This document shows, one piece after another, positions 1-53,184 of a stretch of 64,000 bases of DNA. The position numbers and the translations under genes are program-made. Source of the DNA: Botryllus schlosseri. Lineage: Eukaryota. Within the stretch, counting starts at the first letter, position 1; each line of letters begins with the position of its first letter. The notes below the pieces were generated by a model. It ran no database searches and was not told the origin of the DNA. It was given only the letters and a program-made list of their open reading frames with translations. Location of the stretch: the NCBI GenBank assembly GCA_051294905.1, contig CM119372.1, forward strand, positions 34,784,001 to 34,848,000, given 5' to 3'.

Positions 1-500
1 AACTGAGTAAACATATCATTTTCCTTTGGAGATCTGACGTTTACCTAGACTAAGAAACCATTTTCACTTGGAAATATATTTTTCCCTCAGCAACAAACCA
101 TTTTCACTTGGAAATATATTTTTTCCCTCAGCAACAAACCATTTTCACTTGGCGGTCCGTCGTTTACCTGAGTAAAAACATCACTTGCCTTTAGAGATCT
201 ATCGTTTACCCAGAGTAACAATACAATTTGACTTTGGGTTCAATCCTTTCCTAGAGTAACAAAACCCTTTTCGTTTGCAAATCTATTTTTTTTCCTACAG
301 CAACAAACCATTTTCACTTGGAAAAATACTTTTACCTAGAGTAACTAATTATTTTCTTTTGGAAATATATTTTCTCCCTGGGTAACAAACCTTTTTCGTT
401 TGGAAAACTATCATTTACCTGAGTACCAATACCGTTTTCACTTGGAAATCTATCTTTTCCCTGGGTAACAATACCATTTTCGTTTTGAAAACTGAAAACC
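1..500. repeat. Degenerate ~39-40 bp tandem repeat (ttttcacttggaaatatattttttccctcagcaacaaacca-like); mirror at ~24171..24720
   Basis: Repeated accattttcacttggaaa/tttacc motifs about every 39-40 bp; the array continues to ~24720 on the right. Confidence 0.85.
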
Positions 501-1559
501 ACACCCGATATTTTGATATTTTTGTATATTGTTACAACGGACAGTGACAAAATACACACCAACAACGACTCCGATACATTTGTGTAATCGCATATTCACT
601 TGTGCTGGTGCATCCCATCAAAATCATCGGTTACCCACATGCAATGTGCTCTTGTATATCGAAATGCATGTTTTGGAAATTGGACAATAGGTTTCGACAT
701 GTCCGCGATGTCCGGGTTCGTGCTTTGGATTTTCCAGAGTCAAAATGTCTGAATAAAACACCTCCTCGACGATGGTTGGTACGTGGATAATGGTGTTCGG
801 AAAACGGTTGGATTTATGTCACCCATCGCGATAACAATTCCAGGTCGAGTTTTCCCCCGCATGTTTACTATATTGTGTCTTTATTGGTCAATGTATGTCT
901 CAACAATGTCGACATGACAGTACGGGCCCTATTATCCAGTCCATATACAATTCAGACTGTCATTGAATTCGTATTGGCTACCCGATTAATCTAATTATTT
1001 GCGGATATATTATTTTCGACGTGGTCTGGTGCACAAGACCTTAGTAGTTAAGCACCATTAACCCCACATACAACAACAACAATATATGATCCGCACTGCT
1101 GCAAAATAAGTTTAACTTATATAGCACTTCATATTAAACTACAGTCGACCTTGTTATTCATAATTGCTAGTGGTTACTATGAAATCACAGCAGGCATGGT
1201 GAGTTGAGTGAAACGAGATATTTACAATCTCGCAAAAATATATGTTCACCTACATTCAAATTTTCGTTTGAAAATATTTCAATGCTAGTTATAACTAGGC
1301 TATATAAAAACGTCAATTAGAATTACCCCCCAAATATTGGTAAATTACCCCTTTGGGGGTAATTACCCCAGGTTAAGAACCGCTGGATTAGAGCATACGT
1401 TGCCATAGTAGAAGTAGTAGTAGATTAATAGCAACGTATCTGTGTTTCTTAGTCGGCTAGCAAACATTGCGCAGTGCTCACCTTTACCAACCCTCATAAA
1501 TAATTTAAATCGAATTATTATCGTTTATGCGTTCATGTTCTCACGGATTGGTAGTGTAT

Positions 1560-2029
1560 GGTACCATATAAATTTGCTTAAATTTCTCAAGGCTTCGTAT
1601 TCGCTCCTCTATTTTAGCTGATAATAACAGACTGTGGCATGTAACTATATACAGTTTCTCACTTATTTCATTGGCAGTTCTAGGTGTTTCTGTGCGATAC
1701 AACGCCTTTTTGCATGCATATTTACCTTTATATTCGTGATTTGGTTAAAAATAAATGGCTAATTATTCTGTCATTCACGCAGCTGACAAAATGTTATGAC
1801 TTTGAAGCATCACTCATACTTCGAAAATTCAATTTGACTTGAATTGCGACTTGACTCGTGACTTGACTTGACTTGACTCGACTTGACTCGAGTCACCTCC
1901 AAAAATCGAGTGACTTGACTTGACTCGAGTCACCTTCGAAAATCGATTGACTTGACTTGACTCGAGTCAAAATCTGCAATGACTCGAGATGACTCGTGAC
2001 TCGAAGGTAGTGACTTGATCCCAACACTG
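1560..2029 (+). mobile_element. 3' part of GACTC/GAGTC-rich hAT-like MITE (mirror 22642..~23110)
   Basis: gacttgactcgagtc arrays and terminal gatcccaacactg, close to the end of the full copy at 44346..45309; left boundary approximate. Confidence 0.8.
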
Positions 2030-3607
2030 CCTTGAAGTTCAACTAGTTTGATCACACCCGAGTCAAACAGATACACTTGTCTCATAATGTCATTGACCAA
2101 TATCCACCTCACCTCTAGGCGTCCAGTTGAAAAGAAAACTGGGTCACAAGGTAATTATTCGCACATCAGGCGAAATAAAACAGTTCCGAACCGTTGTGTA
2201 TAAGGTACATAGTGCTCAAAGAACATAATGTAAATATGTATGGTCGCACTGGTGCATTATTTCTGAATCAATGGTCCAGCATTACAACATCGTTGCGTGT
2301 ATTCAGTTCATCAAATGTACTTTTTCGATGTATGTCCAAGCGGTAAAACAAATTATTCACCTTTTCCACTTTATTCAGTGTGGTAAATTTGGTTCAGTGT
2401 GGCGAGTCGACAACTTTAATATACTGAGAATCGTATTTGTGGAAACCCGCTTAACGATATGATAATGTGATTGCAATAAACACCGATCTATCGCATTTCT
2501 TGTCATCAAACTTTACCATGCGAGCTCGTAGAAGCAAAATGAAGAATGCAGAAGCACCACTCTGCTTAGAAACAAACGTTGTGTATCCTGAATGTTGAGA
2601 CTATCGCATATATCGAAACTGATAATGGTAAACGTTACAGTAACGTCGCTATTACAAGAGACTAATATGCCGACGGCACAAATGTCTGGCTTAAGGGAAG
2701 AGAAGTTTAATTTTACACTCTTCAAATAACATGTCATATCATCACAACTCGGTTGCTCATATAAATTACAGGTTATTTTTAACGCCGCGTCACAATATCC
2801 ATGGTACGTGGATGGCAGGTATATCTCATTGCGATACATTATGGGAAGTAATAAAGATCCTATGTGCGTTAGGGTTATGACTGGATAAAAAAATTTAAAA
2901 TTTTGTTTGTCCTGTAGTCACAAATAATGAACTTTTGTGTCCTCATATCAAAATTCACAAGACTGTTTAAACAAAAAACTCCCGCACAAAAAGTTTCCAG
3001 TTTACACTGTATGAAGGATAGGCTTTATTTTGTAGATACAGACTATATAATATGTATAGCGACTGATTCGAATTGAACTGACACAATTCCAACTGCGAAG
3101 ATTTAAAATAGTATTTAGGTAAATTGTGATTGCCCAGAATAAATTAATGCTATCGTGTTCTTGTTTACAGTTAAAATTGAATAATTAATGAATCGTTATC
3201 AATTTCGATTTTAGATGTAGACTGCATATATCGTATAATTCCAATTCGTCTGACACAAATCAAACTGGGTGTTTAAAAAGGCGAAAGTAGATAAACTCAA
3301 AATATTTTCGGCGGTCTAGGAAACCGATTAGAGGAATAGGATGCATAGGAAAATTTAAAAATGTCATATCATATGTGCCACAGCATCTGTTGATACTGGA
3401 CGGCGGAATGGCGAATTTGTGAAACTGCAAAATGCAATGTTGAGCAAGGGTTTTCATAAACCAAAATATATTGGTTGCAAACATTCTATTATCGTTTCTT
3501 AAAGCATATATCAGAGTTCTTCAATCCAACGTCTTCAACAAATCCATCTCTTCTTGGAGGTACAGAACTTCACTATACAGTTGAATAGTATCTTCATATT
3601 GAAATGA

Positions 3608-3641
3608 ACCCGAATATTTTCGGCTGACACTCGTCAGGGGT
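3608..3641 (-). ncRNA. Putative minimal type I hammerhead ribozyme in PLE pseudo-LTR
   Basis: Minus strand reads ACCC-CTGACGA-GTGTCAGCC-GAAA-ATAT-TC-GGGT: core CUGANGA/GAAA, stem I ACCC/GGGT, palindromic short stem III, UUC triplet; stem II is weak. Confidence 0.6.
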
Positions 3642-4455
3642 AATCGTCAGTAAATAGTAGAGAATTCAAAAGAACTCTCTCGTATTCGACATTTCATGCT
3701 GGTGACGTCATATTTTGTGCTACGATTATTGATATACGATGTTCTTCTGAATTCTCTACTAGTTGCTGACGATTACCCCTGACCAGTGTCAGCCGAAAAT
3801 ATTCGGGTTCATTTCAATATGAAGATACTATTCAACTACAAATTTCGAGATGATGTGGTAAACACTACGAAAACTTGATACGATTCACCAAGCCAGAATT
3901 CAGATGAAAATATGAGAAAACCGAGTATGGAGGGACGATTTTATGTTTATCTATCAGCTGTGCAGAGCAAGCCGCTCTTTCGAAGAAAATGATAGATTAC
4001 CACTAATCAAATGGCATAAACTTCCATTACGCAATGCGAGATTGAGCTCAGGGGCCATGATGGCATACTTCCAAATCCCCAAATGGAGAGTAACTCTTGA
4101 GATATCATGCTTATTCATCGCAAATGCGTGTCAAGAAGCCCGGTATTCTAACCAGACGTCTAAAGATGGAATATACTGGAGCCCGACCGATTATCGGTTC
4201 ACCGATGATATCGAGACGATAGCACACTTTGAAAGAATTAACGGTATCTTTGTAAGAATTAACGGTATCTGTGATTGTGGCTACGTGGGAAGAACGTCAA
4301 AGCGTCCGCAGGAACGCATAAACCAGCATGTCCCCAGATTTATCAGAACACATGTGTCACGCTCGGTGAAAAGCTCACCCTCAACTCATCCGCTTAAACT
4401 TGATGCTGGCCGATCAAAGGCCATTAATTCTGCCATCGGCAAACATCTGTTAGTT

Positions 4456-5855
4456 CAGGGGTTCTCAGCCCTTTCTTGGCCGTGGCCCATTTTCCAGTTT
4501 GAAAATGTGTTGTGGGCTGTGGCCCACCTCTTATCTTAGAGTCATAACCCTGTTCACTGCGTGGTAGTCCACGGCGCCGATATGCCTATTTATTTGAAAT
4601 ATGCGCATTTTCTCTTAATTTACTGATGTGATGAGAGAGAGAGAGAGAGATTTTTATTTCTTTGTCAACCGGAATAAACAGAATACCAGAATACTCATAA
4701 CAAAACAAAAAACATACAGTAATAACAGCAACACATACACAGTAATAATAGTGTGTAACTGGCTCTATAACGGTATAGACGGGTGCCGGCGATATGATCC
4801 TTACGATGATATTTGAATCTAGACCTCTAGGGACATGAAATCGCGCTAAGCGCGACGAAAATTTTCAAGTTGAATAAATATCCCCCTAGAAACGACCAAC
4901 GACATAATCTTGGGCCCCTCCCCTTCGAGCTCCGCCAATTGAGGGCTTGGGTGCGGCAGACACGGCCCCGGTAGATCATAGGCTAAAACTCATGTGTATA
5001 TTATGACCGTCCGCTGCTCCATTAGCGTCGCGAAACATAATTATCAAACCCACGCATCCACTGTGTGATTAGGGTTTTAGTTCCACTATTGTGGGGAATA
5101 ATATAATCATTCTGGGCCAGTTTCAAACATTCATTAATGAATGGGGTGCTAGTACCACAGAGAAGTGGAAAAATAGTTTTGTAATATGCATGCTGTACAT
5201 TGTATGTCTTGTACCAAACCAACTGAAATTGCGATGTCAGAATATTCAATCCAATGATACAATCAATTCATGTGACTCTTACATCATGTTCAATGATTCC
5301 AGGCCGTACATTTTAAACCGACTCCAAAGATTATTGCGCTCCGCTAAATCCTCAATCCCTTGCGATTCGCTGCGGTGGTGCAGTATGCCTTCACCAGAAG
5401 TTGCTAATAATTTTCAATACTGGCTACAATAATATGACCTGCCGAAGTACAGTAAATCTATACATCAATTACACTTCATTCCGAGTTCATTGCACACCCC
5501 TTTCAACGGCATACGACATATGACCCTGCCGGAATACTTAGTTACTTCAGCATTACCTTCCGGTTATCATATACTCGAAAATACTTTAGTTGCTGTTAGC
5601 CGTAGGTTGTCATGGCCAGTGGAAAAATCCGCCGTTTGTCCCCCCGTTTTCGACTTGTACATGCTGACTCCATACGTGCCACTATACGTCTGGGCAAAGT
5701 CGGATGAAAAGTTTATGAATATATTTCTAGCGTTTAACATAACAAATATCACTAAACTTACACTAATTCTAAAATTTACTAAATAGCTTTGTGGCCCACC
5801 TCAAAATGCTCTAAGGCCCACCAGTGGGCCATGGCCCACCCTTTGAGAACCCCTG
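4456..5855. mobile_element. hAT-type non-autonomous element (mirror 18816..20215)
   Basis: TIR caggggttctca...tgagaacccctg with perfect 8-bp TSD tgttagtt, interrupting the GIY-YIG frame. Confidence 0.92.
4630..4950 (-). mobile_element. Possible LINE (L2/CR1-like) 3' fragment nested in the MITE
   Basis: Minus strand RSSKGRGPRL resembles the LINE ORF2 C-terminal GPRLWN motif, followed by aataaa and a (TC)n tail; very degenerate. Confidence 0.3.
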
Positions 5856-6685
5856 TGTTAGTTACTCCGATTTGTGCGAATAATTATCGAGACGACAGAT
5901 TTCGCGTCGTTGGGAGGGGCCGCTCACGTGCCTTGGAGTCGACTTTTATCAAATACACCAACCAAAACTCTGTCAACAAAAGGAGTTCGTGTATAACCTT
6001 AAAATAGTACATTGAACGATGTCTCATTCGAAATTTCATGCTGGTGACGTCATATTATGTGATACGATTGTTGATATACAATGTTCTTTCCAATTCTCTA
6101 CTAGTTGCTGACGATTACCCCTGACGAGTGTCAGCCAAAAATATTCGGGTTCATTTCAATATGAATATACTATTAAATTGAATACCTTTCAATTGTAATT
6201 TTTTTCTATATTTGGACCAGTGTCAAAATTGAAGTCAGTTTGTGCGGGACATTTTTTTTGATTTGAACAAAATGATTACAATTTTAATAATTTATATCAA
6301 AATGTTCACTAACTCCTGCTACCTGCTAACCCTAATGTGCATACGTGTATACCTTCCTACGTCCTAATTATTACATTGAAATGTTGTGTTTGATTTACAT
6401 CGTGGTGTAAGTCTCAGGTAGGCTCCGGTTTCATGCATCACGGGTGCATATTCACACCCAAATATCACGGGTGGTAAACGGATGTTAATACACACCCTTC
6501 TCGCCAAGAGTGTACGGGCCCCTATAGATATTTCACCATTCGTTACACAGGATTAGAACCAGAAAGAAGTCACCTATTATATATCACGTTGGCACAGGCG
6601 TAGCTAAAACAAAAAGAGGTATCGCAAGGGCGACAAATTGCCAGCGATAAAATTGTGCAATCGTAGTGTCCTAAATGGTGAGGAC

Positions 6686-7247
6686 TAGGGTTGCATTTGA
6701 AATAAAAATCAATTTAAAACGAACATGTTTAAAACAGGACCCTTGTTTAAAACATTTTTTTTATTCCTTTTGTAGCCATGACGTCACGAATATCTAATTG
6801 TGATGTCACAGTGAATTGTCATTTACTATTGAAAATATAGCGTAAATATGGCTCCTTCGGCGAAAAGGGCTTCCGATCACTGTCACAAACAGACTAAAAT
6901 ATCTTTAACCAGGACTAAATCGTTATGCTGCATTTTTACGGTCGGCGGTCATCATCATCGGAACACCCATTCCGTACCAATGGTCTATATTTACGTGCAA
7001 AAACTGTTGAACCGACGAAGCTTTCGAGGGCTCCAGCCACCCCACATCGTATACGTCGACTATTTTGGGTGCAAATCGTCCGTAAGCTCATACTACATGG
7101 ACGTATTTACACAGTTATGGCATAATTAGACAACGTTAGAAAAAAAAGCATTATTTTTTTTTCAAAAAGGCATTTGTTTGAAACACTGTTTAAAACATGA
7201 TTTGAACAAAGTGTTTTAAAACACCGTTTGTTTTAAATGCAAACCTA
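6686..7247. mobile_element. hAT-type MITE, TIR tagggttgcattt (mirror 17424..17985; relative at ~55126..55567)
   Basis: TIRs tagggttgcattt/aaatgcaaaccta, TSD gtgaggac/gtgtggac. Confidence 0.85.
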
Positions 7248-7736
7248 GTGTGGACACTGCGAGATCACTGCGTTTGGGTTACGTCATGCTTTCCATTTGA
7301 CCAAAGGCAATTTGACGGCAATTTTTGACCGGCTTGCTGACGCTAAATTTGCTAAAACGGGTATCAATCGAAAGCTGTCGCTGTACTGATTACGAAAATA
7401 TAAATATACTGCTCATGGCCCTGCAACCCCCCAAAATTCGTCTAGTATTTTACATTGCTACGAGGTTTGACATTGTGACGCTACAATGCCGTCTGGAGTT
7501 ACTATGGTGCAGCTCAGGAGCAAGTGAGCGGCAAGGAGTGAGAGTGGGAGTCAAGTCATGACTCGAGTCGTGCCAACACTGGCACGCAATAATTGCAGAC
7601 GCAGTCAAGCCCCCTATTATATATCCTATATAAACGTGTTTGGAGGTAGCAAATAAACTGTATCTCTCCATCTCATGAGCATTTCTGACAATCATCAATT
7701 GGACATGCATTGTTAAGACGTCACCAGGTAACGATT

Positions 7737-7783
7737 ATGCTCGCCAAGGACGATTTTGGCAGAACGAGTCTACGTAATGTTTC
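7737..7783 (+). CDS. Candidate first coding exon of class-A GPCR copy 1 (MLAKDDFGRTSLRNV-S)
   Basis: ATG, open frame, donor gtaagt at 7784; phase 2 matches the next exon and forms an N-V-S sequon. The true start is uncertain. Confidence 0.45.
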
Positions 7784-8097
7784 GTAAGTCCGCTGTTATT
7801 TGTCCGGTAACATTTCCTTGAATTTCCTCTGGTTTGTTTTGAAGGCTAGATGTATATTGGAGGTACTTTAATTACAGATACCATTACAAAATCATCGATA
7901 TGGATTCACACCAGTTCCATAACTTCATATCCTCGGCTCCTGTCCTTAAATGAGGCAATGAGATAATCGGAGGGCTTTCACTGGCTTATTTCCTAACAGT
8001 AAAGATGATAAATTTGATGGGAAAGCTTTTTAGGCAAACATATTACCACAGGCATATTATATTAAGCTGTGATTGTTTACAAATTAATCGATTTTAG

Positions 8098-8220
8098 AGG
8101 TGCATTCTCAGACTGGGAAGCAATATTATTCGTCGTGGTAACGGCTATTCTAGCTGCATTCGGAATCGTTGCCAGTACCATCACGATTCTTGTTATCAAC
8201 AGCAATGATACCTTAAAATC
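8098..8220 (+). CDS. Class-A (rhodopsin-like) GPCR TM1 exon, copy in left arm
   Basis: ttttag|...|gtgagt, 123 bp, phase 2-2, GAFSDWEAILFVVVTAILAAFGIVASTITILVINSNDTLK; same length and phase as, and clearly similar to, exon 41027..41149. Confidence 0.8.
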
Positions 8221-8630
8221 GTGAGTACATTTCAAATACAATTTTACATATCTTTGCAGAATTAACCGTCGCGAAATTATGTAGTAAATTTTTTTTTCAT
8301 GTAGTTTTAATGCAGTTTTTGAATGGATTCTTAACATGATCACGAGACCCCCGAAAAGTCTTGATTAGTCTTTCGAATTCGTAGTCAATCTTGGTGCCGA
8401 ATTTCATTCCAGAGACCTTGGTAGGATAGCCATACATTAAAGGGGCCCAACGCTCTGAACATAATGTGGCCACAAATTAAACTTGTCAGTGGTAAAAACA
8501 TTTTGGAACAAGCCATTTTCCTTGGAAAGCCACCGGATTCGAATTGCAGCTAAAAGACAAAGTAGCATTCCAGCTTTCCAGTCCATCCCAACCCATCGAT
8601 CTCTGTGATGCCGACGTAACGCGTCATCAA

Positions 8631-9507
8631 TAGGGCAAGTTTTTGTTGCTCTAAAATCGCGAGAAAGTTGCATTTAATTTTAACAAATGTTGCATTAAAA
8701 CGTTACATTTATAATTTTCGTTGAATTATTAGGGTATGAGATGCTCGAACGGTTCCGTTGTATAACCTAGTTCCGGCAGAGCTGTAAAATTTGTTTCTTT
8801 ATTGCCATTTAACGCATGGTCTGGCGAAACCGCCAAAAATTAAATTTTGTTCGGCACATAGCAAGAAAATTACGTAATGCGGGAATAATACCCTCCCAAA
8901 AAGTCAAAAAGCATAGCTATAACCCCTCCCCTAAAACAAGTCAAATAACACACCCCAAACCCCCTAGGTCTGCAAACTTGACCCAAGGCATGACAGGAAA
9001 ACTCACACTCGGTGACTTCAACAAAAGCAATGGCCTTAAAAAGGTGACTCAGTGACAATGTAATTTTCGACGGTCTCGCCTGGGCGCACGTGAAATGGAA
9101 AATTAGTTCAAATTTAAACGACAGAATTACTAAAGCGAACTATTTACATATTGTTCGGGCACGGTCGTTGGCGGGGGTAGTTGAACTTCTTGGTTGCAAG
9201 TCATTGTGTCATAGATAACAGTGAGATGCAACTAACCCATCATATAGCTTTGCTTTGCAAATCAAAGAGAATAGAATCATACTAGAAATACTATATAGCA
9301 TGCTTTTAAATCACTCCTTTACATTTTAACTCAATATTTGATGCAGGTTGCAGTAAAAATTGGCATGAAAAATCGAGAAAAGTTGCAAAAAGTTGCGATT
9401 TAAAATCCCTCCAAACAGCTTAAAACATCATAGTACATAGATTCTGAGTATCTAGGAAGCTGTCGGAAGCTGTAAAAAAATAGCAAAAGTAGCAAAAACT
9501 TGCCCTA
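8631..9507. mobile_element. hAT-type MITE, TIR tagggcaagttttt (mirror 15164..16040; diverged copy 58063..58933)
   Basis: TIR tagggcaagtttttg/caaaaacttgcccta, TSD gtcatcaa/gtcatcag. Confidence 0.9.
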
Positions 9508-10182
9508 GTCATCAGTTCCTAATCATTTGCGAAATTACTGACACGCATTGTTTCACTGTTGCACTTTCCCGGCTTGATCAACGCGAATAAAAATGAATTT
9601 TAAATAGCTGTTGGCCGATAGTATGAAGGAACTGCGTCTTACGATACCATGACGGTTTAGTGTAAGTAACAATCACCGCCGGAAAGAGTTGATATCGGTA
9701 CCAATAACTTCCACAAAGATACCTGACGCAACATAGTTCGTTGAGCTACAATACCGTAAAGGCGTACGCCTACTTACTGCAGGGGTCACGAACTCAAAAC
9801 GGGTCGCGAGCGTCTTTTTCAACTTTATTAGAAGCCGCGGGCCGCATTATTTCAATATCGAGATAAAATGGGCCTCACACGTTTTTAAAACTTTACGTCA
9901 GTACAACACCGTGCTCTTTAACATGGGCGACGGGCATATAGTTACCACAAAATAAATAATATTTTATTGAAGAAATGCAAATACAAGAAAAATATAATTA
10001 TCATCACTTTTATTGTATTTTGAACTACTAGCTGCGCATGATACTTGACAACACTTTTCAGCGAGTAATGGAGTGAGCTAGAGCCACGGTATTCGCTGGA
10101 AAACTATCTCCTCGGAAAGGTTCTTCCTGTGGGGTAGCCCCAGTTCGTTTTCGAAGCGCCTCGGTCTCTGCATTGTCTAGGC

Positions 10183-11508
10183 CAGTGGTTGGGAACCTAT
10201 GGCTCGCGAGCCATACATGGCTCTTTTGGGCATGAGATATGGCTCTTTGCGAGATTTTTATTTTTGTGCTTCATTTATCAATATTGCAGTAACTATTGTA
10301 ATTAAATCTTCAGCACAACTAATATAAATATGCTCGTGGCAGTTTGAAGTTTCTTTGAGAGGTTAATACAGTGGAGTATTAGGGGTTTGGGGTTGGGCGC
10401 CCTTTTCAAAATCGTTACATTTAAGTTGCTGTCGCGGCGGCGACCAATATCACTCCCAAATTCGATGTACCCGCCACGAAATCTTGGATTGCGCGATACG
10501 TCGATTGATCAACGAGAATAGCAGACATGACGGCGCCTGTATCGCAATGCAGTTTTCAAATACACATTGTCTTCCTGATCTACGGCGAGAATGAACTGCC
10601 GTGGAAGTGACATTCACAATTACAAATTCAAATTACAAACAACGCCATAGCTATTCACGTTTCTGATTGATAACGTATAGTTTTGTAGCCGCTTTTAGCA
10701 AGTAGGCGTGTGGCGCATCGTCGCGTTACGGCTGACTACTTTGAGAATTGAGAAGTCGATTCGGAATCAGTGCCACAAATACATTACATTATTATCAGTT
10801 ATCATAAATTCTTTGATATTTACGATCAATTGCGCTATCACGGGTATGGCATCGTGCGGCCGTGCCTCACCTATGCCTCACTTCTCCTTTCACGCTTTAT
10901 TTTCGAGCAATAAATAGGCTATTTGCGTGTTTTTGGTGGTAAAAATGTTCAAAATCTAGTAGACAGGTGAGGCAGCGCCTCACCTGTCTCCCCTGAAACC
11001 ACGTCATACACTGACGCATCACACATTACAGTGGTTATGTATCCTGCTGTATAGTGACCGTGTTTGGCTCCAGCTACGTATGTCATCATGGGTCCTCGCA
11101 TTGGAGAATAACATCAAGACTAACCTACGATCTCGTATAACTGACTAAAGTCTCAAATTTTGTATGAAGCTTAACCTCAACCAGACTACAAAGCCGTCAG
11201 GAATACCATGCAACACCAAAAGACGCATTAACTGTAAAAAGCGTGTAAAAGTAGATTCATACTTTTACTGTTGTCTACGTATGTTGGAAATTTACAAATT
11301 AATTGTCTTAAGCTTCGAAAAATATCATATGCCTCTCAGTGCAATACAATTAAAAATGTATAACTAGCAAAGGATATATATGTAACCGAAGTTTTGCATA
11401 CTCATTACTCAAATAAGGCAACCAATAAGATTAGTACGAGTTTGACAGAGAAAAACGGTGCAAACGACGATTTCCATGCAAAGATTTCGAATTTGCACTA
11501 CCATGACG
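10183..11508. mobile_element. Truncated mirror of hAT MITE 13047..14488 (second TIR missing)
   Basis: Starts cagtggttgggaacc at 10183 and is cut at the arm end. Confidence 0.85.
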
Positions 11509-11517
11509 ACTATATAC

Positions 11518-12837
11518 CAGTGATGGGATGACTCTAGTCAACTTTTACTGATGACTAGGGTGATTTTTTTGATATGCCAAAATATGTCAAAATTTTGTCA
11601 AAAATTTTAGCGTTAGGTCAAAAAATTGTCAAAATTGTTTACGAAGTCAAAAGTTTTTGTTGCCACTTGCATTTCGTTTGTATCGTGTATGTTTTCACTG
11701 TCGGCGAACTTATCATTTGACATTTTACAGCTTTTAGCCTACTTTATAGCCCGACCGTTGTAGACGGCTTATTGTGAATCATAAACGGCCAAATGAAACA
11801 AATAGGTTGACATGGTGTTATGCTGATTCTATCGCAATATCCGGACTCAAGCAAGGCTGCGTGGGCATTGGTTCTTATATCAAGAAGCGCATGATGAAAT
11901 ATTGTGATGTAGAAAACATTGTCAGAATGAAGCAGCACGGTGTGTCACCAGCAGTGTACGCACAACTTCAGTGTTGCCGGCCAACAACTGCTGCTGTTGA
12001 ACGTTCTTTCTCCATTTTTGGCAAGCTACTTATCGTAAGGACAGACAATTTCTGCAAGAGAATGTGGGAAAGTATCTTTCGCTACACTACAACAAATGTT
12101 CATTATTTCAACCATAATGAGTAATGTAACTAATGGAATTCTTCATAGGTCCAGCTTTCGATAAAATAAATTTTTTCGATAGTTTTTAAGTCAAACAAGT
12201 GTTTTTCAGGCCAAACTACTTCGTAAGGGCAGACAGTTCCAACCAGAAATGGAGATAAGTAGTACAATTTCAATATTATGTCATGAAATATACAGGAAGT
12301 CAAAATTTGGTCAGAATTAAGTTTTTTGAGGTAAAAAAATGTCAAAATTTTAATTTTTCAGGTCAAAAGCTTCCCTTTTTTAGATAAAACTAAATCGCCC
12401 TATCGATGACTTAATCTGACTCGAGGCACTTTGCAAAACTGACTTGATTTGACTCGGCGTCTCCATACTGTTTCCGAGTCAATTTCAGGTCAAGTACTCA
12501 TGTCGACCAAGTCGCTGTACCTATGCGTACATGTTTCCGACACGCTGATATGATGCCCCATTGAAGGTGAAATTAACTGAATATTCGTTACTCGATTTGT
12601 AATTAATAGTAAATCAATCTGTACTTCAATCATCTTGCAAAATGTATCGGCTTGAATCACGCCTCGAACTTCGAAAATTCGACATGTCTTTGTGACTTAA
12701 CACGTCACATGAATCGACCTGACTTGACTTGACTCTAGTCACCTTCAACCATCGAGTGACTCGACTTGAGTCCAGTGAAATGTACAATGACTCTAATTGA
12801 CATGTGACTCGAAGGTAGTGAGTTGATCCCAACACTG
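11518..12837 (+). mobile_element. GACTC-rich hAT-like MITE in the palindrome spacer
   Basis: TIR cagtgatgggat/atcccaacactg, TSD ctatatac/ctgtatac; same family as 44346..45309. Confidence 0.85.
11556..12402 (+). mobile_element. Nested hAT-like deletion derivative with transposase C-terminal remnant
   Basis: TIR tagggtgattt/aaatcgcccta. ORF 11774..12124 contains QLQCCRPTTAAVERSFSIFGKLL, like the PxTSxxxERxFS motif of the hAT dimerisation domain. Second copy at 52331..53153. Confidence 0.8.
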
Positions 12838-13046
12838 CTGTATACTCTTTGTAATTTAAAAATGCTGAAATAATTTCAGTTAAACAATATTGTTGTTGTT
12901 GTTGTTCAAAATAAGCTATTCTCCTGTGCCCAACATCACGATTCCTCACTAGCTGATAAAAGCTTCAATAGAGCATTCAATGGAGGAAGAATGTACTAAT
13001 ATTGACTGGGCATGGGCATATTGCGTTCATGTACAATGGCCTAGAT

Positions 13047-14488
13047 CAGTGGTCGGGAACCTTTTTCGTCCGAAGAGCCATATTGACCCTATATTTTTCA
13101 TTCTAACCCCCAAAGAGCCATACATGTCAATCAACTACTATGTCACAATTGAAAAATCGTGACGTCATGGTAGTGCAAATTCGAAATCTTTGCATGGAAA
13201 TCGTCGTTTGCACCGTTTTTCTCTGTCAAACTCGTACTAATCTTATTGGTTGCCTTATTTGAGTAATGAGTATGCAAAACTTCGGTTACATATATATCCT
13301 TTGCTAGTTATACATTTTTAATTGTATTGCACTGAGAGGCATATGATATTTTTCGAAGCTTAAGACAATTAATTTGTAAATTTCCAACATACGTAGACAA
13401 CAGTAAAAGTATGAATCTACTTTTACACGCTTTTTACAGTTAATGCGTCTTTTGGTGTTGCATGGTATTCCTGACGGCTTTGTAGTCTGGTTGAGGTTAA
13501 GCTTCATACAAAATTTGAGACTTTAGTCAGTTATACGAGATCGTAGGTTAGTCTTGATGTTATTCTCCAATGCGAGGACCCATGATGACATACGTAGCTG
13601 GAGCCAAACACGGTCACTATACAGCAGGATACATAACCACTGTAATGTGTGATGCGTCAGTGTATGACGTGGTTTCAGGGGAGACAGGTGAGGCGCTGCC
13701 TCACCTGTCTACTAGATTTTGAACATTTTTACCACCAAAAACACGCAAATAGCCTATTTATTGCTCGAAAATAAAGCGTGAAAGGAGAAGTGAGGCATAG
13801 GTGAGGCACGGCCGCACGATGCCATACCCGTGATAGCGCAATTGATCGTAAATATCAAAGAATTTATGATAACTGATAATAATGTAATGTATTTGTGGCA
13901 CTGATTCCGAATCGACTTCTCAATTCTCAAAGTAGTCAGCCGTAACGCGACGATGCGCCACACGCCTACTTGCTAAAAGCGGCTACAAAACTATACGTTA
14001 TCAATCAGAAACGTGAATAGCTATGGCGTTGTTTGTAATTTGAATTTGTAATTGTGAATGTCACTTCCACGGCAGTTCATTCTCGCCGTAGATCAGGAAG
14101 ACAATGTGTATTTGAAAACTGCATTGCGATACAGGCGCCGTCATGTCTGCTATTCTCGTTGATCAATCGACGTATCGCGCAATCCAAGATTTCGTGGCGG
14201 GTACATCGAATTTGGGAGTGATATTGGTCGCCGCCGCGACAGCAACTTAAATGTAACGATTTTGAAAAGGGCGCCCAACCCCAAACCCCTAATACTCCAC
14301 TGTATTAACCTCTCAAAGAAACTTCAAACTGCCACGAGCATATTTATATTAGTTGTGCTGAAGATTTAATTACAATAGTTACTGCAATATTGATAAATGA
14401 AGCACAAAAATAAAAATCTCGCAAAGAGCCATATCTCATGCCCAAAAGAGCCATGTATGGCTCGCGAGCCATAGGTTCCCAACCACTG
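13047..14488. mobile_element. Complete hAT-type MITE spanning the spacer/right-arm boundary
   Basis: TIR cagtggtcgggaacc/ggttcccaaccactg, TSD gcctagat/gcctagac. Confidence 0.88.
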
Positions 14489-16450: not shown

Positions 16451-16573
16451 GATTTTAAGGTATCATTGCTGTTGATAACAAGAATCGTGATGGTACTGGC
16501 AACGATTCCGAATGCAGCTAGAATAGCCGTTACCACGACGAATAATATTGCTTCCCAGTCTGAGAATGCACCT
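16451..16573 (-). CDS. Class-A GPCR TM1 exon, mirror copy in right arm
   Basis: Reverse complement of 8098..8220. Confidence 0.8.
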
Positions 16574-16887
16574 CTAAAATCGATTAATTTGTAAACAATC
16601 ACAGCTTAATATAATATGCCTGTGGTAATATGTTTGCCTAAAAAGCTTTCCCATCAAATTTATCATCTTTACTGTTAGGAAATAAGCCAGTGAAAGCCCT
16701 CCGATTATCTCATTGCCTCATTTAAGGACAGGAGCCGAGGATATGAAGTTATGGAACTGGTGTGAATCCATATCGATGATTTTGTAATGGTATCTGTAAT
16801 TAAAGTACCTCCAATATACATCTAGCCTTCAAAACAAACCAGAGGAAATTCAAGGAAATGTTACCGGACAAATAACAGCGGACTTAC

Positions 16888-16934
16888 GAAACATTACGTA
16901 GACTCGTTCTGCCAAAATCGTCCTTGGCGAGCAT
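16888..16934 (-). CDS. Candidate first coding exon of GPCR, mirror copy
   Basis: Reverse complement of 7737..7783. Confidence 0.45.
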
Positions 16935-18490
16935 AATCGTTACCTGGTGACGTCTTAACAATGCATGTCCAATTGATGATTGTCAGAAATGCTCATGAGA
17001 TGGAGAGATACAGTTTATTTGCTACCTCCAAACACGTTTATATAGGATATATAATAGGGGGCTTGACTGCGTCTGCAATTATTGCGTGCCAGTGTTGGCA
17101 CGACTCGAGTCATGACTTGACTCCCACTCTCACTCCTTGCCGCTCACTTGCTCCTGAGCTGCACCATAGTAACTCCAGACGGCATTGTAGCGTCACAATG
17201 TCAAACCTCGTAGCAATGTAAAATACTAGACGAATTTTGGGGGGTTGCAGGGCCATGAGCAGTATATTTATATTTTCGTAATCAGTACAGCGACAGCTTT
17301 CGATTGATACCCGTTTTAGCAAATTTAGCGTCAGCAAGCCGGTCAAAAATTGCCGTCAAATTGCCTTTGGTCAAATGGAAAGCTTGACGTAACCCAAACG
17401 CAGTGATCTCGCAGTGTCCACACTAGGTTTGCATTTAAAACAAACGGTGTTTTAAAACACTTTGTTCAAATCATGTTTTAAACAGTGTTTCAAACAAATG
17501 CCTTTTTGAAAAAAAAATAATGCTTTTTTTTCTAACGTTGTCTAATTATGCCATAACTGTGTAAATACGTCCATGTAGTATGAGCTTACGGACGATTTGC
17601 ACCCAAAATAGTCGACGTATACGATGTGGGGTGGCTGGAGCCCTCGAAAGCTTCGTCGGTTCAACAGTTTTTGCACGTAAATATAGACCATTGGTACGGA
17701 ATGGGTGTTCCGATGATGATGACCGCCGACCGTAAAAATGCAGCATAACGATTTAGTCCTGGTTAAAGATATTTTAGTCTGTTTGTGACAGTGATCGGAA
17801 GCCCTTTTCGCCGAAGGAGCCATATTTACGCTATATTTTCAATAGTAAATGACAATTCACTGTGACATCACAATTAGATATTCGTGACGTCATGGCTACA
17901 AAAGGAATAAAAAAAATGTTTTAAACAAGGGTCCTGTTTTAAACATGTTCGTTTTAAATTGATTTTTATTTCAAATGCAACCCTAGTCCTCACCATTTAG
18001 GACACTACGATTGCACAATTTTATCGCTGGCAATTTGTCGCCCTTGCGATACCTCTTTTTGTTTTAGCTACGCCTGTGCCAACGTGATATATAATAGGTG
18101 ACTTCTTTCTGGTTCTAATCCTGTGTAACGAATGGTGAAATATCTATAGGGGCCCGTACACTCTTGGCGAGAAGGGTGTGTATTAACATCCGTTTACCAC
18201 CCGTGATATTTGGGTGTGAATATGCACCCGTGATGCATGAAACCGGAGCCTACCTGAGACTTACACCACGATGTAAATCAAACACAACATTTCAATGTAA
18301 TAATTAGGACGTAGGAAGGTATACACGTATGCACATTAGGGTTAGCAGGTAGCAGGAGTTAGTGAACATTTTGATATAAATTATTAAAATTGTAATCATT
18401 TTGTTCAAATCAAAAAAAATGTCCCGCACAAACTGACTTCAATTTTGACACTGGTCCAAATATAGAAAAAAATTACAATTGAAAGGTATT

Positions 18491-21092
18491 CAATTTAATA
18501 GTATATTCATATTGAAATGAACCCGAATATTTTTGGCTGACACTCGTCAGGGGTAATCGTCAGCAACTAGTAGAGAATTGGAAAGAACATTGTATATCAA
18601 CAATCGTATCACATAATATGACGTCACCAGCATGAAATTTCGAATGAGACATCGTTCAATGTACTATTTTAAGGTTATACACGAACTCCTTTTGTTGACA
18701 GAGTTTTGGTTGGTGTATTTGATAAAAGTCGACTCCAAGGCACGTGAGCGGCCCCTCCCAACGACGCGAAATCTGTCGTCTCGATAATTATTCGCACAAA
18801 TCGGAGTAACTAACACAGGGGTTCTCAAAGGGTGGGCCATGGCCCACTGGTGGGCCTTAGAGCATTTTGAGGTGGGCCACAAAGCTATTTAGTAAATTTT
18901 AGAATTAGTGTAAGTTTAGTGATATTTGTTATGTTAAACGCTAGAAATATATTCATAAACTTTTCATCCGACTTTGCCCAGACGTATAGTGGCACGTATG
19001 GAGTCAGCATGTACAAGTCGAAAACGGGGGGACAAACGGCGGATTTTTCCACTGGCCATGACAACCTACGGCTAACAGCAACTAAAGTATTTTCGAGTAT
19101 ATGATAACCGGAAGGTAATGCTGAAGTAACTAAGTATTCCGGCAGGGTCATATGTCGTATGCCGTTGAAAGGGGTGTGCAATGAACTCGGAATGAAGTGT
19201 AATTGATGTATAGATTTACTGTACTTCGGCAGGTCATATTATTGTAGCCAGTATTGAAAATTATTAGCAACTTCTGGTGAAGGCATACTGCACCACCGCA
19301 GCGAATCGCAAGGGATTGAGGATTTAGCGGAGCGCAATAATCTTTGGAGTCGGTTTAAAATGTACGGCCTGGAATCATTGAACATGATGTAAGAGTCACA
19401 TGAATTGATTGTATCATTGGATTGAATATTCTGACATCGCAATTTCAGTTGGTTTGGTACAAGACATACAATGTACAGCATGCATATTACAAAACTATTT
19501 TTCCACTTCTCTGTGGTACTAGCACCCCATTCATTAATGAATGTTTGAAACTGGCCCAGAATGATTATATTATTCCCCACAATAGTGGAACTAAAACCCT
19601 AATCACACAGTGGATGCGTGGGTTTGATAATTATGTTTCGCGACGCTAATGGAGCAGCGGACGGTCATAATATACACATGAGTTTTAGCCTATGATCTAC
19701 CGGGGCCGTGTCTGCCGCACCCAAGCCCTCAATTGGCGGAGCTCGAAGGGGAGGGGCCCAAGATTATGTCGTTGGTCGTTTCTAGGGGGATATTTATTCA
19801 ACTTGAAAATTTTCGTCGCGCTTAGCGCGATTTCATGTCCCTAGAGGTCTAGATTCAAATATCATCGTAAGGATCATATCGCCGGCACCCGTCTATACCG
19901 TTATAGAGCCAGTTACACACTATTATTACTGTGTATGTGTTGCTGTTATTACTGTATGTTTTTTGTTTTGTTATGAGTATTCTGGTATTCTGTTTATTCC
20001 GGTTGACAAAGAAATAAAAATCTCTCTCTCTCTCTCTCATCACATCAGTAAATTAAGAGAAAATGCGCATATTTCAAATAAATAGGCATATCGGCGCCGT
20101 GGACTACCACGCAGTGAACAGGGTTATGACTCTAAGATAAGAGGTGGGCCACAGCCCACAACACATTTTCAAACTGGAAAATGGGCCACGGCCAAGAAAG
20201 GGCTGAGAACCCCTGAACTAACAGATGTTTGCCGATGGCAGAATTAATGGCCTTTGATCGGCCAGCATCAAGTTTAAGCGGATGAGTTGAGGGTGAGCTT
20301 TTCACCGAGCGTGACACATGTGTTCTGATAAATCTGGGGACATGCTGGTTTATGCGTTCCTGCGGACGCTTTGACGTTCTTCCCACGTAGCCACAATCAC
20401 AGATACCGTTAATTCTTACAAAGATACCGTTAATTCTTTCAAAGTGTGCTATCGTCTCGATATCATCGGTGAACCGATAATCGGTCGGGCTCCAGTATAT
20501 TCCATCTTTAGACGTCTGGTTAGAATACCGGGCTTCTTGACACGCATTTGCGATGAATAAGCATGATATCTCAAGAGTTACTCTCCATTTGGGGATTTGG
20601 AAGTATGCCATCATGGCCCCTGAGCTCAATCTCGCATTGCGTAATGGAAGTTTATGCCATTTGATTAGTGGTAATCTATCATTTTCTTCGAAAGAGCGGC
20701 TTGCTCTGCACAGCTGATAGATAAACATAAAATCGTCCCTCCATACTCGGTTTTCTCATATTTTCATCTGAATTCTGGCTTGGTGAATCGTATCAAGTTT
20801 TCGTAGTGTTTACCACATCATCTCGAAATTTGTAGTTGAATAGTATCTTCATATTGAAATGAACCCGAATATTTTCGGCTGACACTGGTCAGGGGTAATC
20901 GTCAGCAACTAGTAGAGAATTCAGAAGAACATCGTATATCAATAATCGTAGCACAAAATATGACGTCACCAGCATGAAATGTCGAATACGAGAGAGTTCT
21001 TTTGAATTCTCTACTATTTACTGACGATTACCCCTGACGAGTGTCAGCCGAAAATATTCGGGTTCATTTCAATATGAAGATACTATTCAACT
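18491..21092 (-). mobile_element. Mirror copy of Penelope-like remnant
   Basis: Reverse complement of 3579..6180 (ORF 20132..20728 identical to 3943..4539). Confidence 0.85.
21030..21063 (+). ncRNA. Putative minimal type I hammerhead ribozyme (mirror copy)
   Basis: acccctgacgagtgtcagccgaaaatattcgggt. Confidence 0.6.
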
Positions 21093-24000
21093 GTATAGTG
21101 AAGTTCTGTACCTCCAAGAAGAGATGGATTTGTTGAAGACGTTGGATTGAAGAACTCTGATATATGCTTTAAGAAACGATAATAGAATGTTTGCAACCAA
21201 TATATTTTGGTTTATGAAAACCCTTGCTCAACATTGCATTTTGCAGTTTCACAAATTCGCCATTCCGCCGTCCAGTATCAACAGATGCTGTGGCACATAT
21301 GATATGACATTTTTAAATTTTCCTATGCATCCTATTCCTCTAATCGGTTTCCTAGACCGCCGAAAATATTTTGAGTTTATCTACTTTCGCCTTTTTAAAC
21401 ACCCAGTTTGATTTGTGTCAGACGAATTGGAATTATACGATATATGCAGTCTACATCTAAAATCGAAATTGATAACGATTCATTAATTATTCAATTTTAA
21501 CTGTAAACAAGAACACGATAGCATTAATTTATTCTGGGCAATCACAATTTACCTAAATACTATTTTAAATCTTCGCAGTTGGAATTGTGTCAGTTCAATT
21601 CGAATCAGTCGCTATACATATTATATAGTCTGTATCTACAAAATAAAGCCTATCCTTCATACAGTGTAAACTGGAAACTTTTTGTGCGGGAGTTTTTTGT
21701 TTAAACAGTCTTGTGAATTTTGATATGAGGACACAAAAGTTCATTATTTGTGACTACAGGACAAACAAAATTTTAAATTTTTTTATCCAGTCATAACCCT
21801 AACGCACATAGGATCTTTATTACTTCCCATAATGTATCGCAATGAGATATACCTGCCATCCACGTACCATGGATATTGTGACGCGGCGTTAAAAATAACC
21901 TGTAATTTATATGAGCAACCGAGTTGTGATGATATGACATGTTATTTGAAGAGTGTAAAATTAAACTTCTCTTCCCTTAAGCCAGACATTTGTGCCGTCG
22001 GCATATTAGTCTCTTGTAATAGCGACGTTACTGTAACGTTTACCATTATCAGTTTCGATATATGCGATAGTCTCAACATTCAGGATACACAACGTTTGTT
22101 TCTAAGCAGAGTGGTGCTTCTGCATTCTTCATTTTGCTTCTACGAGCTCGCATGGTAAAGTTTGATGACAAGAAATGCGATAGATCGGTGTTTATTGCAA
22201 TCACATTATCATATCGTTAAGCGGGTTTCCACAAATACGATTCTCAGTATATTAAAGTTGTCGACTCGCCACACTGAACCAAATTTACCACACTGAATAA
22301 AGTGGAAAAGGTGAATAATTTGTTTTACCGCTTGGACATACATCGAAAAAGTACATTTGATGAACTGAATACACGCAACGATGTTGTAATGCTGGACCAT
22401 TGATTCAGAAATAATGCACCAGTGCGACCATACATATTTACATTATGTTCTTTGAGCACTATGTACCTTATACACAACGGTTCGGAACTGTTTTATTTCG
22501 CCTGATGTGCGAATAATTACCTTGTGACCCAGTTTTCTTTTCAACTGGACGCCTAGAGGTGAGGTGGATATTGGTCAATGACATTATGAGACAAGTGTAT
22601 CTGTTTGACTCGGGTGTGATCAAACTAGTTGAACTTCAAGGCAGTGTTGGGATCAAGTCACTACCTTCGAGTCACGAGTCATCTCGAGTCATTGCAGATT
22701 TTGACTCGAGTCAAGTCAAGTCAATCGATTTTCGAAGGTGACTCGAGTCAAGTCAAGTCACTCGATTTTTGGAGGTGACTCGAGTCAAGTCGAGTCAAGT
22801 CAAGTCAAGTCACGAGTCAAGTCGCAATTCAAGTCAAATTGAATTTTCGAAGTATGAGTGATGCTTCAAAGTCATAACATTTTGTCAGCTGCGTGAATGA
22901 CAGAATAATTAGCCATTTATTTTTAACCAAATCACGAATATAAAGGTAAATATGCATGCAAAAAGGCGTTGTATCGCACAGAAACACCTAGAACTGCCAA
23001 TGAAATAAGTGAGAAACTGTATATAGTTACATGCCACAGTCTGTTATTATCAGCTAAAATAGAGGAGCGAATACGAAGCCTTGAGAAATTTAAGCAAATT
23101 TATATGGTACCATACACTACCAATCCGTGAGAACATGAACGCATAAACGATAATAATTCGATTTAAATTATTTATGAGGGTTGGTAAAGGTGAGCACTGC
23201 GCAATGTTTGCTAGCCGACTAAGAAACACAGATACGTTGCTATTAATCTACTACTACTTCTACTATGGCAACGTATGCTCTAATCCAGCGGTTCTTAACC
23301 TGGGGTAATTACCCCCAAAGGGGTAATTTACCAATATTTGGGGGGTAATTCTAATTGACGTTTTTATATAGCCTAGTTATAACTAGCATTGAAATATTTT
23401 CAAACGAAAATTTGAATGTAGGTGAACATATATTTTTGCGAGATTGTAAATATCTCGTTTCACTCAACTCACCATGCCTGCTGTGATTTCATAGTAACCA
23501 CTAGCAATTATGAATAACAAGGTCGACTGTAGTTTAATATGAAGTGCTATATAAGTTAAACTTATTTTGCAGCAGTGCGGATCATATATTGTTGTTGTTG
23601 TATGTGGGGTTAATGGTGCTTAACTACTAAGGTCTTGTGCACCAGACCACGTCGAAAATAATATATCCGCAAATAATTAGATTAATCGGGTAGCCAATAC
23701 GAATTCAATGACAGTCTGAATTGTATATGGACTGGATAATAGGGCCCGTACTGTCATGTCGACATTGTTGAGACATACATTGACCAATAAAGACACAATA
23801 TAGTAAACATGCGGGGGAAAACTCGACCTGGAATTGTTATCGCGATGGGTGACATAAATCCAACCGTTTTCCGAACACCATTATCCACGTACCAACCATC
23901 GTCGAGGAGGTGTTTTATTCAGACATTTTGACTCTGGAAAATCCAAAGCACGAACCCGGACATCGCGGACATGTCGAAACCTATTGTCCAATTTCCAAAA

Positions 24001-25067
24001 CATGCATTTCGATATACAAGAGCACATTGCATGTGGGTAACCGATGATTTTGATGGGATGCACCAGCACAAGTGAATATGCGATTACACAAATGTATCGG
24101 AGTCGTTGTTGGTGTGTATTTTGTCACTGTCCGTTGTAACAATATACAAAAATATCAAAATATCGGGTGTGGTTTTCAGTTTTCAAAACGAAAATGGTAT
24201 TGTTACCCAGGGAAAAGATAGATTTCCAAGTGAAAACGGTATTGGTACTCAGGTAAATGATAGTTTTCCAAACGAAAAAGGTTTGTTACCCAGGGAGAAA
24301 ATATATTTCCAAAAGAAAATAATTAGTTACTCTAGGTAAAAGTATTTTTCCAAGTGAAAATGGTTTGTTGCTGTAGGAAAAAAAATAGATTTGCAAACGA
24401 AAAGGGTTTTGTTACTCTAGGAAAGGATTGAACCCAAAGTCAAATTGTATTGTTACTCTGGGTAAACGATAGATCTCTAAAGGCAAGTGATGTTTTTACT
24501 CAGGTAAACGACGGACCGCCAAGTGAAAATGGTTTGTTGCTGAGGGAAAAAATATATTTCCAAGTGAAAATGGTTTGTTGCTGAGGGAAAAATATATTTC
24601 CAAGTGAAAATGGTTTCTTAGTCTAGGTAAACGTCAGATCTCCAAAGGAAAATGATATGTTTACTCAGTTAAACGACGGACAACCAAGTGAAAGTGGTAA
24701 TTTCACATAGGTAAACGTCGTGGGTTCGGTTTCGTTGGTCTTGTTAAACGTAGCTGTCGAGTTGTACAATATACTTGTCGTGAATATACAATTACGAAGG
24801 GAGAGAATGAAATTGCTATTATGAGTGCCAGAAGGTTGTTGTATGTAGATTTGACAGTAACCCTATCATTCACATATGACAAACACAATCATGACCGTGA
24901 ATACATGTAACTAACTTGTTCTGTCTCGATCAATGCGAAAGAGATGATTCGTTCTTTGAAACCGTAGCGAAGACCACACGTAAATCTATGCGATAGACTT
25001 CTATCTCCTTACATTCAGTCGTGTCGTGTCCATTTTAATACGGGTCCCACATGTATGACATGCACAC

Positions 25068-26646: not shown

Positions 26647-27465
26647 ATGCACACACTAACACCGTAAACAGAAGTCGATGATTTTGATTAATAAAAATAT
26701 TTCTTGACTACATCGGAATGTCTATGTTGTAGAAAGTAAATACTTTTATGGTGTTGTGTGTTTAATGAAAGCGATTGGTTACAAGTATGTTTTGGGAAAA
26801 TATAATTTATTTTTCTGTATGTGACAGTTTGTGAGGAAATGAAAATAGATCCGTGGTTTTATTGTCTTGTGATTGCACTGTTTTAATGTACGCTTCAACA
26901 TGGAGACTTGACGCTGAACAACAACTCGATTCACTAAACAATTTGTCGCTGGTGTGCAAAGGGTTAGGAAAATTTTAATACAGCTCCATCTACTGGTTGT
27001 TTTGTTGTGAGGACAAGCATGCGATGACTCAGCACTTTTCGTTAGCAAAGTAGATTGATCTGTGTGAAAGATGTAAGGGCCGTGACTAGAAAACATATGT
27101 ACTCTGTTGTTGGAGTAGCTGATTTATTGCTATGAAATTGACAGAACCCTCGGGAAGTGAGTATGCTTTTCTTTCACGAAAGTTTACGTGGTTCGTTGTA
27201 ATAGATTTGTGTTAACTACACTCGGATAGATACTGCAATTGTGCTGGACTTACACATGGTATTCGCATACTGTACACATACAAACTTTGTGTAAACAACT
27301 CTGATGTTTCTGTTCGTACTAGTTCTGTGTTGAACTATTTGATTATTAAGATACACGAACAACCATTCGGACAATAAAGTTCTTGAGGTATCGAAACAGT
27401 TTGAAAGCCCCGCCAATCATTGTACAGGTTTGTAGCATGGGAATATCGAGTATTTTCGTGTAACA

Positions 27466-30900: not shown

Positions 30901-31229
30901 GTAAAAGACTTGAGCAGGCCGCGTTTCCAAAACGGACGTATTTAGTGGGTCACACATATCAAAACGCAAGCGCAAACATCTGTTTTTCAAAATCGCACAA
31001 TGCACTGCGGTTTAGTGAATTTCCGGTTTAGCGAAACGAACGATTTTATTGTGTCACACATGTCAAAACGCAACCACCAACATCTGTTTTTCAAAATCGC
31101 ACAGCGCAAAGACTTGAGTTAGAACACGATCGGTCATTTGTCACGACTAAACTACGATGTCTTCATGTAGAACCGTGTGAGCGATCCCTATACCTGTAAC
31201 GCTATCATGTCGCGTCTATATCAGCTACC

Positions 31230-53153: not shown

Positions 53154-53184
53154 ATAATCACTAATCACACCCCTTAGTCACGAG

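Follow-up and report, generated by a model that had tools for sequence, protein, structure and literature searches.

In the human fold-back inverted duplications of Hermetz et al. (2014, PMC3907307), the 21 sequenced junctions described there have spacers of 766-70,466 bp (median 3,428 bp) and show 2-8 bp of inverted microhomology. Primary yeast ODIRA junctions, as described in 10.1101/2023.09.19.558550, form at 4-8 nt repeats lying 40-80 bp apart and yield triplications. A narrow literature search found no ascidian inverted duplication studied with both a genome assembly and heterozygosity, which does not imply that none has been published.

We analyzed a window of 64,000 nt from Botryllus schlosseri (GCA_051294905.1, CM119372.1, 34,784,001-34,848,000, forward strand), which contains no N bases and carries a giant palindrome. 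The locus resembles the human fold-back events (PMC3907307, as far as that report describes them) in having two inverted copies, a single-copy (disomic) spacer and one apparent new junction at the spacer's far end, and the spacer of 1,654 bp lies inside the human range. It differs in that the human events described are megabase in size and sit beside terminal deletions, translocations or rings, whereas the Botryllus case is chromosome-interior. ODIRA and its derived INV-DUP-DEL products, in the account given in 10.1101/2023.09.19.558550, share with the locus an interstitial inverted copy, an intact chromosome end and a local switch to the opposite strand; unlike the ODIRA products in that account, the 1.65-kb spacer here would require secondary trimming, and the read depth corresponds to about two copies rather than three.

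If real, the locus would represent a fresh inverted duplication on one invertebrate haplotype, with polarity and inner junction at base resolution, an example of receptor-gene pieces being copied and inverted in a transposon-dense genome, and a case in which an animal chromosome retains a long palindrome that has a short spacer. The general picture would be unchanged, the structure being already known in humans and yeast; if the locus is an error, it serves as a warning on this assembly.

Geometry and polarity of the palindrome

A base-by-base test and self-BLAST of the window both reproduced the palindrome proposed in the sequence-only reading. Positions 1 to 11508 pair with 24670 to 13163 over 11,508 columns at 99.991% identity, with one mismatch and no gaps; E = 0 excludes a chance origin, and one mismatch over this length sets the 95% upper bound on the arm-arm difference at 0.05%. 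The single substitution was located by the base-by-base test exactly where that reading had placed it, at 7287/17384, and position 7287 is absent among the 40 of 873 read-contig differences listed. Pairing breaks off sharply at 11509/13162, leaving the same spacer that had been claimed, and no decayed arm homology is found within it. Since the arms align without gaps, their ORF translations are identical and the (GA)n length is the same in both; the mirror ORFs were also seen. The match extends to window base 1, so 11.5 kb is the minimum arm length, and because pairing reaches the window edge there, 24670 is a provisional outer end. The remaining repeats are diverged, as had been stated from the letters: the runner-up among long repeats pairs 32699-34614 with 57853-55933 at 92.6% identity over 1,952 columns. 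The features of the palindrome and its junctions are as follows.

1..11508, - strand: left arm, putatively the derived inverted copy (polarity from element A), minimum extent
11509..13162, no strand: single-copy spacer, 1,654 bp, largely transposon remains (self-alignment; exact contig 12349-12566)
13163..24670, + strand: right arm, putatively the original copy (self-alignment, element A, exact contigs); pairing may extend past 24670
7287, no strand: sole difference between the arms, paired with 17384
11508..11509, no strand: putative new junction, where the interior of mirrored element A meets a site lying 1 bp outside element B's left target duplication
11518..12837, + strand: element B, non-autonomous hAT-type; inverted ends 12/14 alike, 8-bp target duplication 7/8 alike (11510-11517, 12838-12845)
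13047..14488, + strand: element A, hAT-type, straddling the right junction; inverted ends 13/14 alike, 8-bp target duplication 7/8 alike
13160..13167, no strand: perfect 8-bp palindrome, its center 1 bp away from where the duplicated stretch begins

Element A is unbroken across 13162/13163, whereas the left arm has a cut version, a mirror (10183-11508) missing the element's first 116 bp; the right side is therefore taken as the old sequence and 11508/11509 as the new joint. As read from the assembly, one edge of the spacer is thus continuous with the parent sequence, while the other is the putative new joint. Within element B, 11551-12383 is 74% like 52326-53132, and a frame in the latter stretch gives a weak match to the hAT dimerisation domain in Pfam (E 0.015, below the cut-off). 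The coincidence of the 8-bp palindrome with the arm boundary was spotted post hoc, and 1.7% of positions lie equally near the center of such a palindrome.

Copy number and the origin of the arms

Read depth was examined in public DNA runs, of which X1, X2 and X3 derive from one sample, possibly the source of the assembly itself; the library type, amplified or not, is unrecorded. The depth ratios rest on X2 and X3, with X1 (1/8 exact pieces) and X5 (another sample, 0/8) left out. Copy number was taken per contig, the summed bin depth being set aside as repeat-dominated, and the runs contain only 0.60-0.65 of the sampled words.

Of the eight pieces shown per run, five are exact arm contigs, at depths of 99.3, 125.5, 135, 91.7 and 96.2 in X2 and of 9.7, 12.5, 13, 13.9 and 16.5 in X3. 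The single-copy contigs of X2 stand at 37.6 (exact spacer, 12349-12566), 59.2 (diverged spacer) and 52.2 (diverged arm), and those of X3 at 5 (the same exact spacer, one such contig per run), 3.52 (the diverged arm contig at 16191) and 7.78. All ten exact arm contigs are deeper than each of the six single-copy values of their own run. An arm depth equal to single copy, which had been named beforehand as one half of the sign of an artefact, was not observed, the ratios being 2.2 in X2 and 2.4 in X3, from few contigs of one sample. A version of arm and spacer diverged by 5-9% is present at single depth in the same sample. At base 16191 in X3 an exact contig (depth 13) and a diverged contig (3.52) share their start, which gives three arm copies and two spacer copies. 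Against a doubled arm, one residual depth within it, at 20262 in X2 (49.6), is at the single-copy level.

Because the exact arms lie at 2.2-2.4 times single-copy depth and the diverged version lies at single depth, a real duplication on one haplotype is favored. We consider it likely that the locus is a young inverted duplication, formed by fold-back or template switching, with a single-copy spacer and carried by one haplotype; the duplication itself is probably real rather than an assembly error. In this scenario the starting point at 11509, either a DNA end or a nascent strand that had stalled, would have reached 13163, 1.65 kb off, by fold-back or by a template switch; at least 11.5 kb would then have been copied in the opposite direction before the copied strand returned to the chromosome through a second junction, to the left of the window. 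Between the arms one position in 11,508 differs, versus 5-9% for the same sample's diverged contigs, and the identity of the arms would then reflect a recent event and not maintenance. There is no indication of a function for the duplication. Of the three origins offered by the sequence-only reading, the very recent inverted duplication is thus upheld by the arm depth of about twofold and the one new joint, arms homogenised by gene conversion are disfavored by the diverged arm at single depth, and an artefact is the less likely account.

That artefact would be a read or amplification chimera (fold-back or template switch) or an assembly misjoin that doubled the arm, with the depth supplied by homozygous arms or by a second copy, and we regard it as unlikely, though the foremost of the alternatives. 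It would explain the near-total identity of the arms and the lack of any gap, and the joint 11508/11509 is not among the joints listed for the public runs, a repeat-swamped list with 3,071 joints and 344,415 pieces beyond it. Inverted chimeras are the most frequent kind in amplified DNA, at least in the data described in 10.64898/2026.06.11.730069, and those of multiple displacement amplification resemble the locus, in the descriptions given there and in PMC6218980, in leaving an inverted copy of near-perfect identity after a template switch. In these descriptions they affect part of the molecules, whereas here two runs show an approximately twofold arm depth; a chimera made during amplification would need to be close to fixation in both. 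A lone chimeric read or a misjoin would keep the arm at single-copy depth, against which all ten exact arm contigs are higher. The two spacer versions in X2 sum to 96.8, the level of the arm, and homozygous arms together with a paralogue could mimic a doubled arm depth; if both homologues carried identical arms, the paralogue would have to be the source of the diverged arm contigs, and the exact and diverged contigs standing side by side at 16191 speak against the artefact. False duplication of two haplotypes was rejected, as the arms differ by 0.009% and allelic versions by 5-9%.

An origin by transposition is considerably less probable. It could take the form of a break by hAT transposase beside element B, or of a composite with Maverick-type ends (one at 31822 and a mirror end some 7 kb to the left of the window) that captured host DNA. 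The putative joint does lie 1 bp outside element B's target duplication, when 220 of 52,492 positions fall within 10 bp outside such ends, and the visible arm end falls within a very high-copy repeat that extends from about 23.5 kb to 31822 and closes with a Maverick-type end at 31810-31822. The coincidence with element B was, however, spotted post hoc, and the joint carries neither a transposon end nor a new target duplication: it falls within element A, which is cut internally, and 9 bp outside element B's end, while element B retains its old duplication plus one base. With no new 8-bp duplication, the joint does not have the form of an alternative or macro-transposition by hAT. The exact arm contigs stand at about two copies, at odds with a Maverick-ended multicopy unit, and the residual depths at 29467 (32.7 in X2) and 29620 (5.8 in X1) resemble single-copy values, which hints weakly at an arm that stops before the Maverick end. 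More doubtful still is a palindrome of about 39 kb with Maverick ends on both sides, host DNA and the receptor exon inside, mobile as a unit and formed by fold-back at the target site of a hAT element.

The least probable origin, and a very improbable one in absolute terms, is an ancient palindrome in which gene conversion between the arms maintains their identity, as happens on mammalian sex chromosomes: the arm identity above 99.9% is of the order given for such palindromes in PMC8981503 and PMC8600007, but the diverged arm (52.2) and diverged spacer (59.2) in X2, with three contigs in all, make the other haplotype seem unduplicated, the joint is sharp beside a spacer free of decayed homology, and the arms hold no whole genes, with 0 of 112 frames reaching the Pfam cut-off.

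Arm contents and a receptor-like exon

In place of whole genes, the arms contain small transposons and one exon resembling the first helix of a GPCR.

18816..20215, + strand: hAT-type element with a perfect 8-bp target duplication, present in both arms (mirror 4456-5855)
24190..24698, no strand: satellite of 41-bp units, running on past 24670 (mirror 3-481) and lying within the high-copy repeat
8098..8220, + strand: left copy of a 123-bp exon bounded by AG and GT, encoding one hydrophobic helix, GPCR first-helix-like; matches 41027-41149
16451..16573, - strand: right, putatively original, copy of the same 123-bp exon, spanned by a diverged contig in X3

Rfam at the gathering score and ARAGORN each returned 0 matches. 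In Pfam, none of the 112 stop-free frames of at least 45 aa in 11509-24670 reached the cut-off (one weak match, E 0.006), nor did any of 12 chosen frames; the 111 frames of at least 55-65 aa in 24671-31822 and 35000-55000, searched with P0001, gave one weak match (E 0.003).

The arm exon is 52.5% identical to the exon at 41027-41149 over 40 aa (E 1e-8), and it was copied without the next exon. We infer the GPCR label of the arm exon. The diverged X3 contig that covers the right copy (16191-16626, depth 3.52) carries 33 differences. Taken alone, three exons of 40-43 aa matched no Pfam family, and neither the second exon nor P0001 gave a match in word searches. Scans by motif and hydrophobicity detected no third-helix exon for either gene, and short exons could escape such scans. 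Metagenome scans gave 331 pattern matches for the exon, 0 of them confirmed, and 0 for the left end of the spacer; the parent allele was not recovered from either scan. A holin identity for the arm exon was considered and rejected, since the Atlas look-alikes fell below 0.9 with low recognition and are attributed to a hydrophobic-helix effect. A profile built from the two first-helix exons found one match, a nameless protein of 55 aa, among 1.84 billion proteins. For the second exon all leads in the Atlas were below 0.9, and several of these are 7TM families.

Palindrome geometry and polarity

Direct comparison and self-BLAST bear out the near-perfect giant palindrome of the sequence-only reading: bases 1–11508 are the reverse complement of 13163–24670, with a single substitution (7287/17384) and no gaps, around a spacer at 11509–13162. 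The arm length of 11.5 kb is a minimum, since the pairing reaches base 1, which is only the edge of the window. All other repeats are diverged, as had also been claimed, the best other long repeat being 92.6% alike. The window has no N, a G+C content of 39% and few long frames, and no RNA families or tRNAs were found in it.

A search of 11509–64000 for inverted ends with an 8-bp target duplication returned 11 elements, which we take to be hAT-type from these two features; a related copy gave one weak match to a dimerisation domain. Two of them lie at the junctions:

13047–14488, element A, from the spacer into the right arm; ends 13/14 alike, target duplication 7/8 alike
11518–12837, element B, in the spacer

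Because element A spans the spacer into the right arm, the right junction (13162/13163) is old, continuous sequence; as the left-arm mirror of element A lacks its first 116 bp, the left junction (11508/11509) is the new one. Here the interior of element A is fused to sequence that starts 1 bp beyond element B's left target duplication. This joint has neither an element end nor a fresh duplication, which speaks against its having been made by a transposase through direct strand transfer. Of 52,492 positions, 220 fall in the 10 bp beyond such an element end, the new junction among them, and 13163 sits no more than 1 bp from the middle of an 8-bp palindrome, a closeness shared by 1.7% of positions; both were spotted after the fact and are leads only.

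Read depth, origin and age

The palindrome is probably a real inverted duplication, very young, specific to one haplotype and with its spacer in single copy; this kind of rearrangement is already known, and no function is indicated here. The fraction of sampled words present was 0.60–0.65 in four runs of one sample and at most 0.16 in other samples of the same organism. Contigs of public runs X1, X2 and X3 (one sample) and X5 (another) were compared with 11440–30500, giving tables dominated by repeats; the new junction was absent among the matches listed, which counts neither for nor against a duplication. Depth ratios are per contig, from the eight pieces listed per run, with X2 and X3 used and X1 and X5 left out. 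In X2, five arm pieces identical to the window had depths of 91.7–135 (mean 109.5), compared with 37.6 for the exact spacer, 59.2 for a diverged spacer (19/220 differences) and 52.2 for a diverged arm (27/332 differences), a ratio of 2.2 between exact arm and single-copy-level pieces. In X3, five exact arm pieces had depths of 9.7–16.5 (mean 13.1), with 5 for the exact spacer and 3.52 and 7.78 for the diverged arm, a ratio of 2.4. Each run contributes only one exact spacer piece, and the sample, whose library type is not on record, is possibly the assembly's own. A simple model has two exact arms and one exact spacer, with a homologue of one arm and one spacer diverged by 5–9%; X5, in which no exact pieces were shown, fits a divergence of this order from one individual to another.

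The main rival, which we consider unlikely, is an amplification chimera: such chimeras take the same shape as the palindrome, according to 10.64898/2026.06.11.730069. The arm ratios in both runs depart from the single-copy depth that the sequence-only reading had named, together with no or only one read across the junction, as the mark of an artefact. Homozygous arms with a diverged paralogue would yield identical depth numbers, because in X2 the depths of the exact and the diverged spacer together equal that of the arms. Residual depth (the window's letter at private positions) was noisy, with one in-arm value at single copy; it hints at two copies at 24728–26199 and one at 29467–29620, which would put the outer end inside a large, very high-copy repeat. 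This repeat, with nested insertions, runs from ~23.5 kb to 31822, finishing in a Maverick-type terminal motif, and has a second, inverted copy, 69–89% alike, from 59650. Were the arms to reach 31822 and its mirror, the whole would form a Maverick-ended palindrome of 39 kb that has taken up host DNA, a reading we consider highly improbable.

Beyond the demonstrated arms, spacer, polarity and approximate doubling, the inverted duplication probably began when an end at 11509, either free or nascent, paired with opposite-sense sequence at 13163, from which at least 11.5 kb would have been copied backwards before the copied strand rejoined the chromosome left of the window. In PMC3907307, human fold-back duplications have a spacer in 21/21 sequenced cases (766–70,466 bp), as does the present palindrome, and most show 2–8 bp of inverted microhomology; interstitial cases are better accounted for by template switching at the fork, according to 10.1101/2023.09.19.558550. 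The arms differ at 1 of 11,508 positions (upper bound 0.05%), versus 5–9% between exact and diverged versions, and the event would therefore be very young.

Arm content and receptor-like exons

The arm consists mostly of small transposons and a 41-bp satellite, and none of 112 stop-free frames had a Pfam match at the cut-off. Each arm carries one receptor-like exon, with a paralogue further right:

8098–8220, + strand, AG..GT exon, 123 bp, left arm
16451–16573, − strand, AG..GT exon, 123 bp, right arm
41027–41149 and 41901–42030, + strand, two exons in compatible phase from a GPCR-like gene, paralogous to the arm exon and lying head to head with the original copy of that exon

The arm exon is 52.5% identical to exon 41027–41149, with equal length and phase. 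The latter is followed by exon 41901–42030, of which no counterpart was found in the arms or spacer; the arm exon has either lost its next exon or is separated from it by over 16 kb, with that exon beyond the window's left edge. Exons 41027–41149 and 41901–42030 resemble helices 1 and 2 of a rhodopsin-type GPCR, judging from known motifs and Atlas leads below 0.9, with no significant family match for the pair and no third-helix exon up to 59600. At a helix-1 position where we take Asn to be conserved, the arm exon has Ser, and the paralogue and P0001, a protein compared with these exons, have Asn.

The longest frame of the arm (3943–4539, mirror 20132–20728) has a weak, below-cut-off GIY-YIG match (E 0.087), is interrupted by an element at 4456–5855 and is possibly a Penelope-type remnant. 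A small palindromic element of 260 bp at 3579–3837 (mirror 20834–21092) is 82% self-complementary and recurs as another, partial copy at 18487–18645.

Other repeats in the window

Both copies of the large repeat (23500–31822, ~6.3 kb without its insertions, and 59650–64000) are non-coding, with Maverick-type motifs at 31810–31822 and 59650–59662 and subterminal tandem arrays. Inside the first lies a foldback-like element of 1,579 bp (25068–26646), skipped by the contigs; CAATTA arrays underlie each of its ends, a decayed palindrome of 560 bp lies within it, and its 8-bp duplication is perfect. At 46216–46346 and 48005–48136 there is a tRNA-like short repeat that ARAGORN does not report as a tRNA. 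The hAT-type elements at 45875–47374 and 48169–50780 enclose others at 46040–47095 and 48521–49862, all with 8-bp duplications, and two 1.9-kb hAT-type elements in opposite orientation (32699–34613 and 55934–57853), 92.6% alike, have perfect ends and an 8-bp duplication each of their own.
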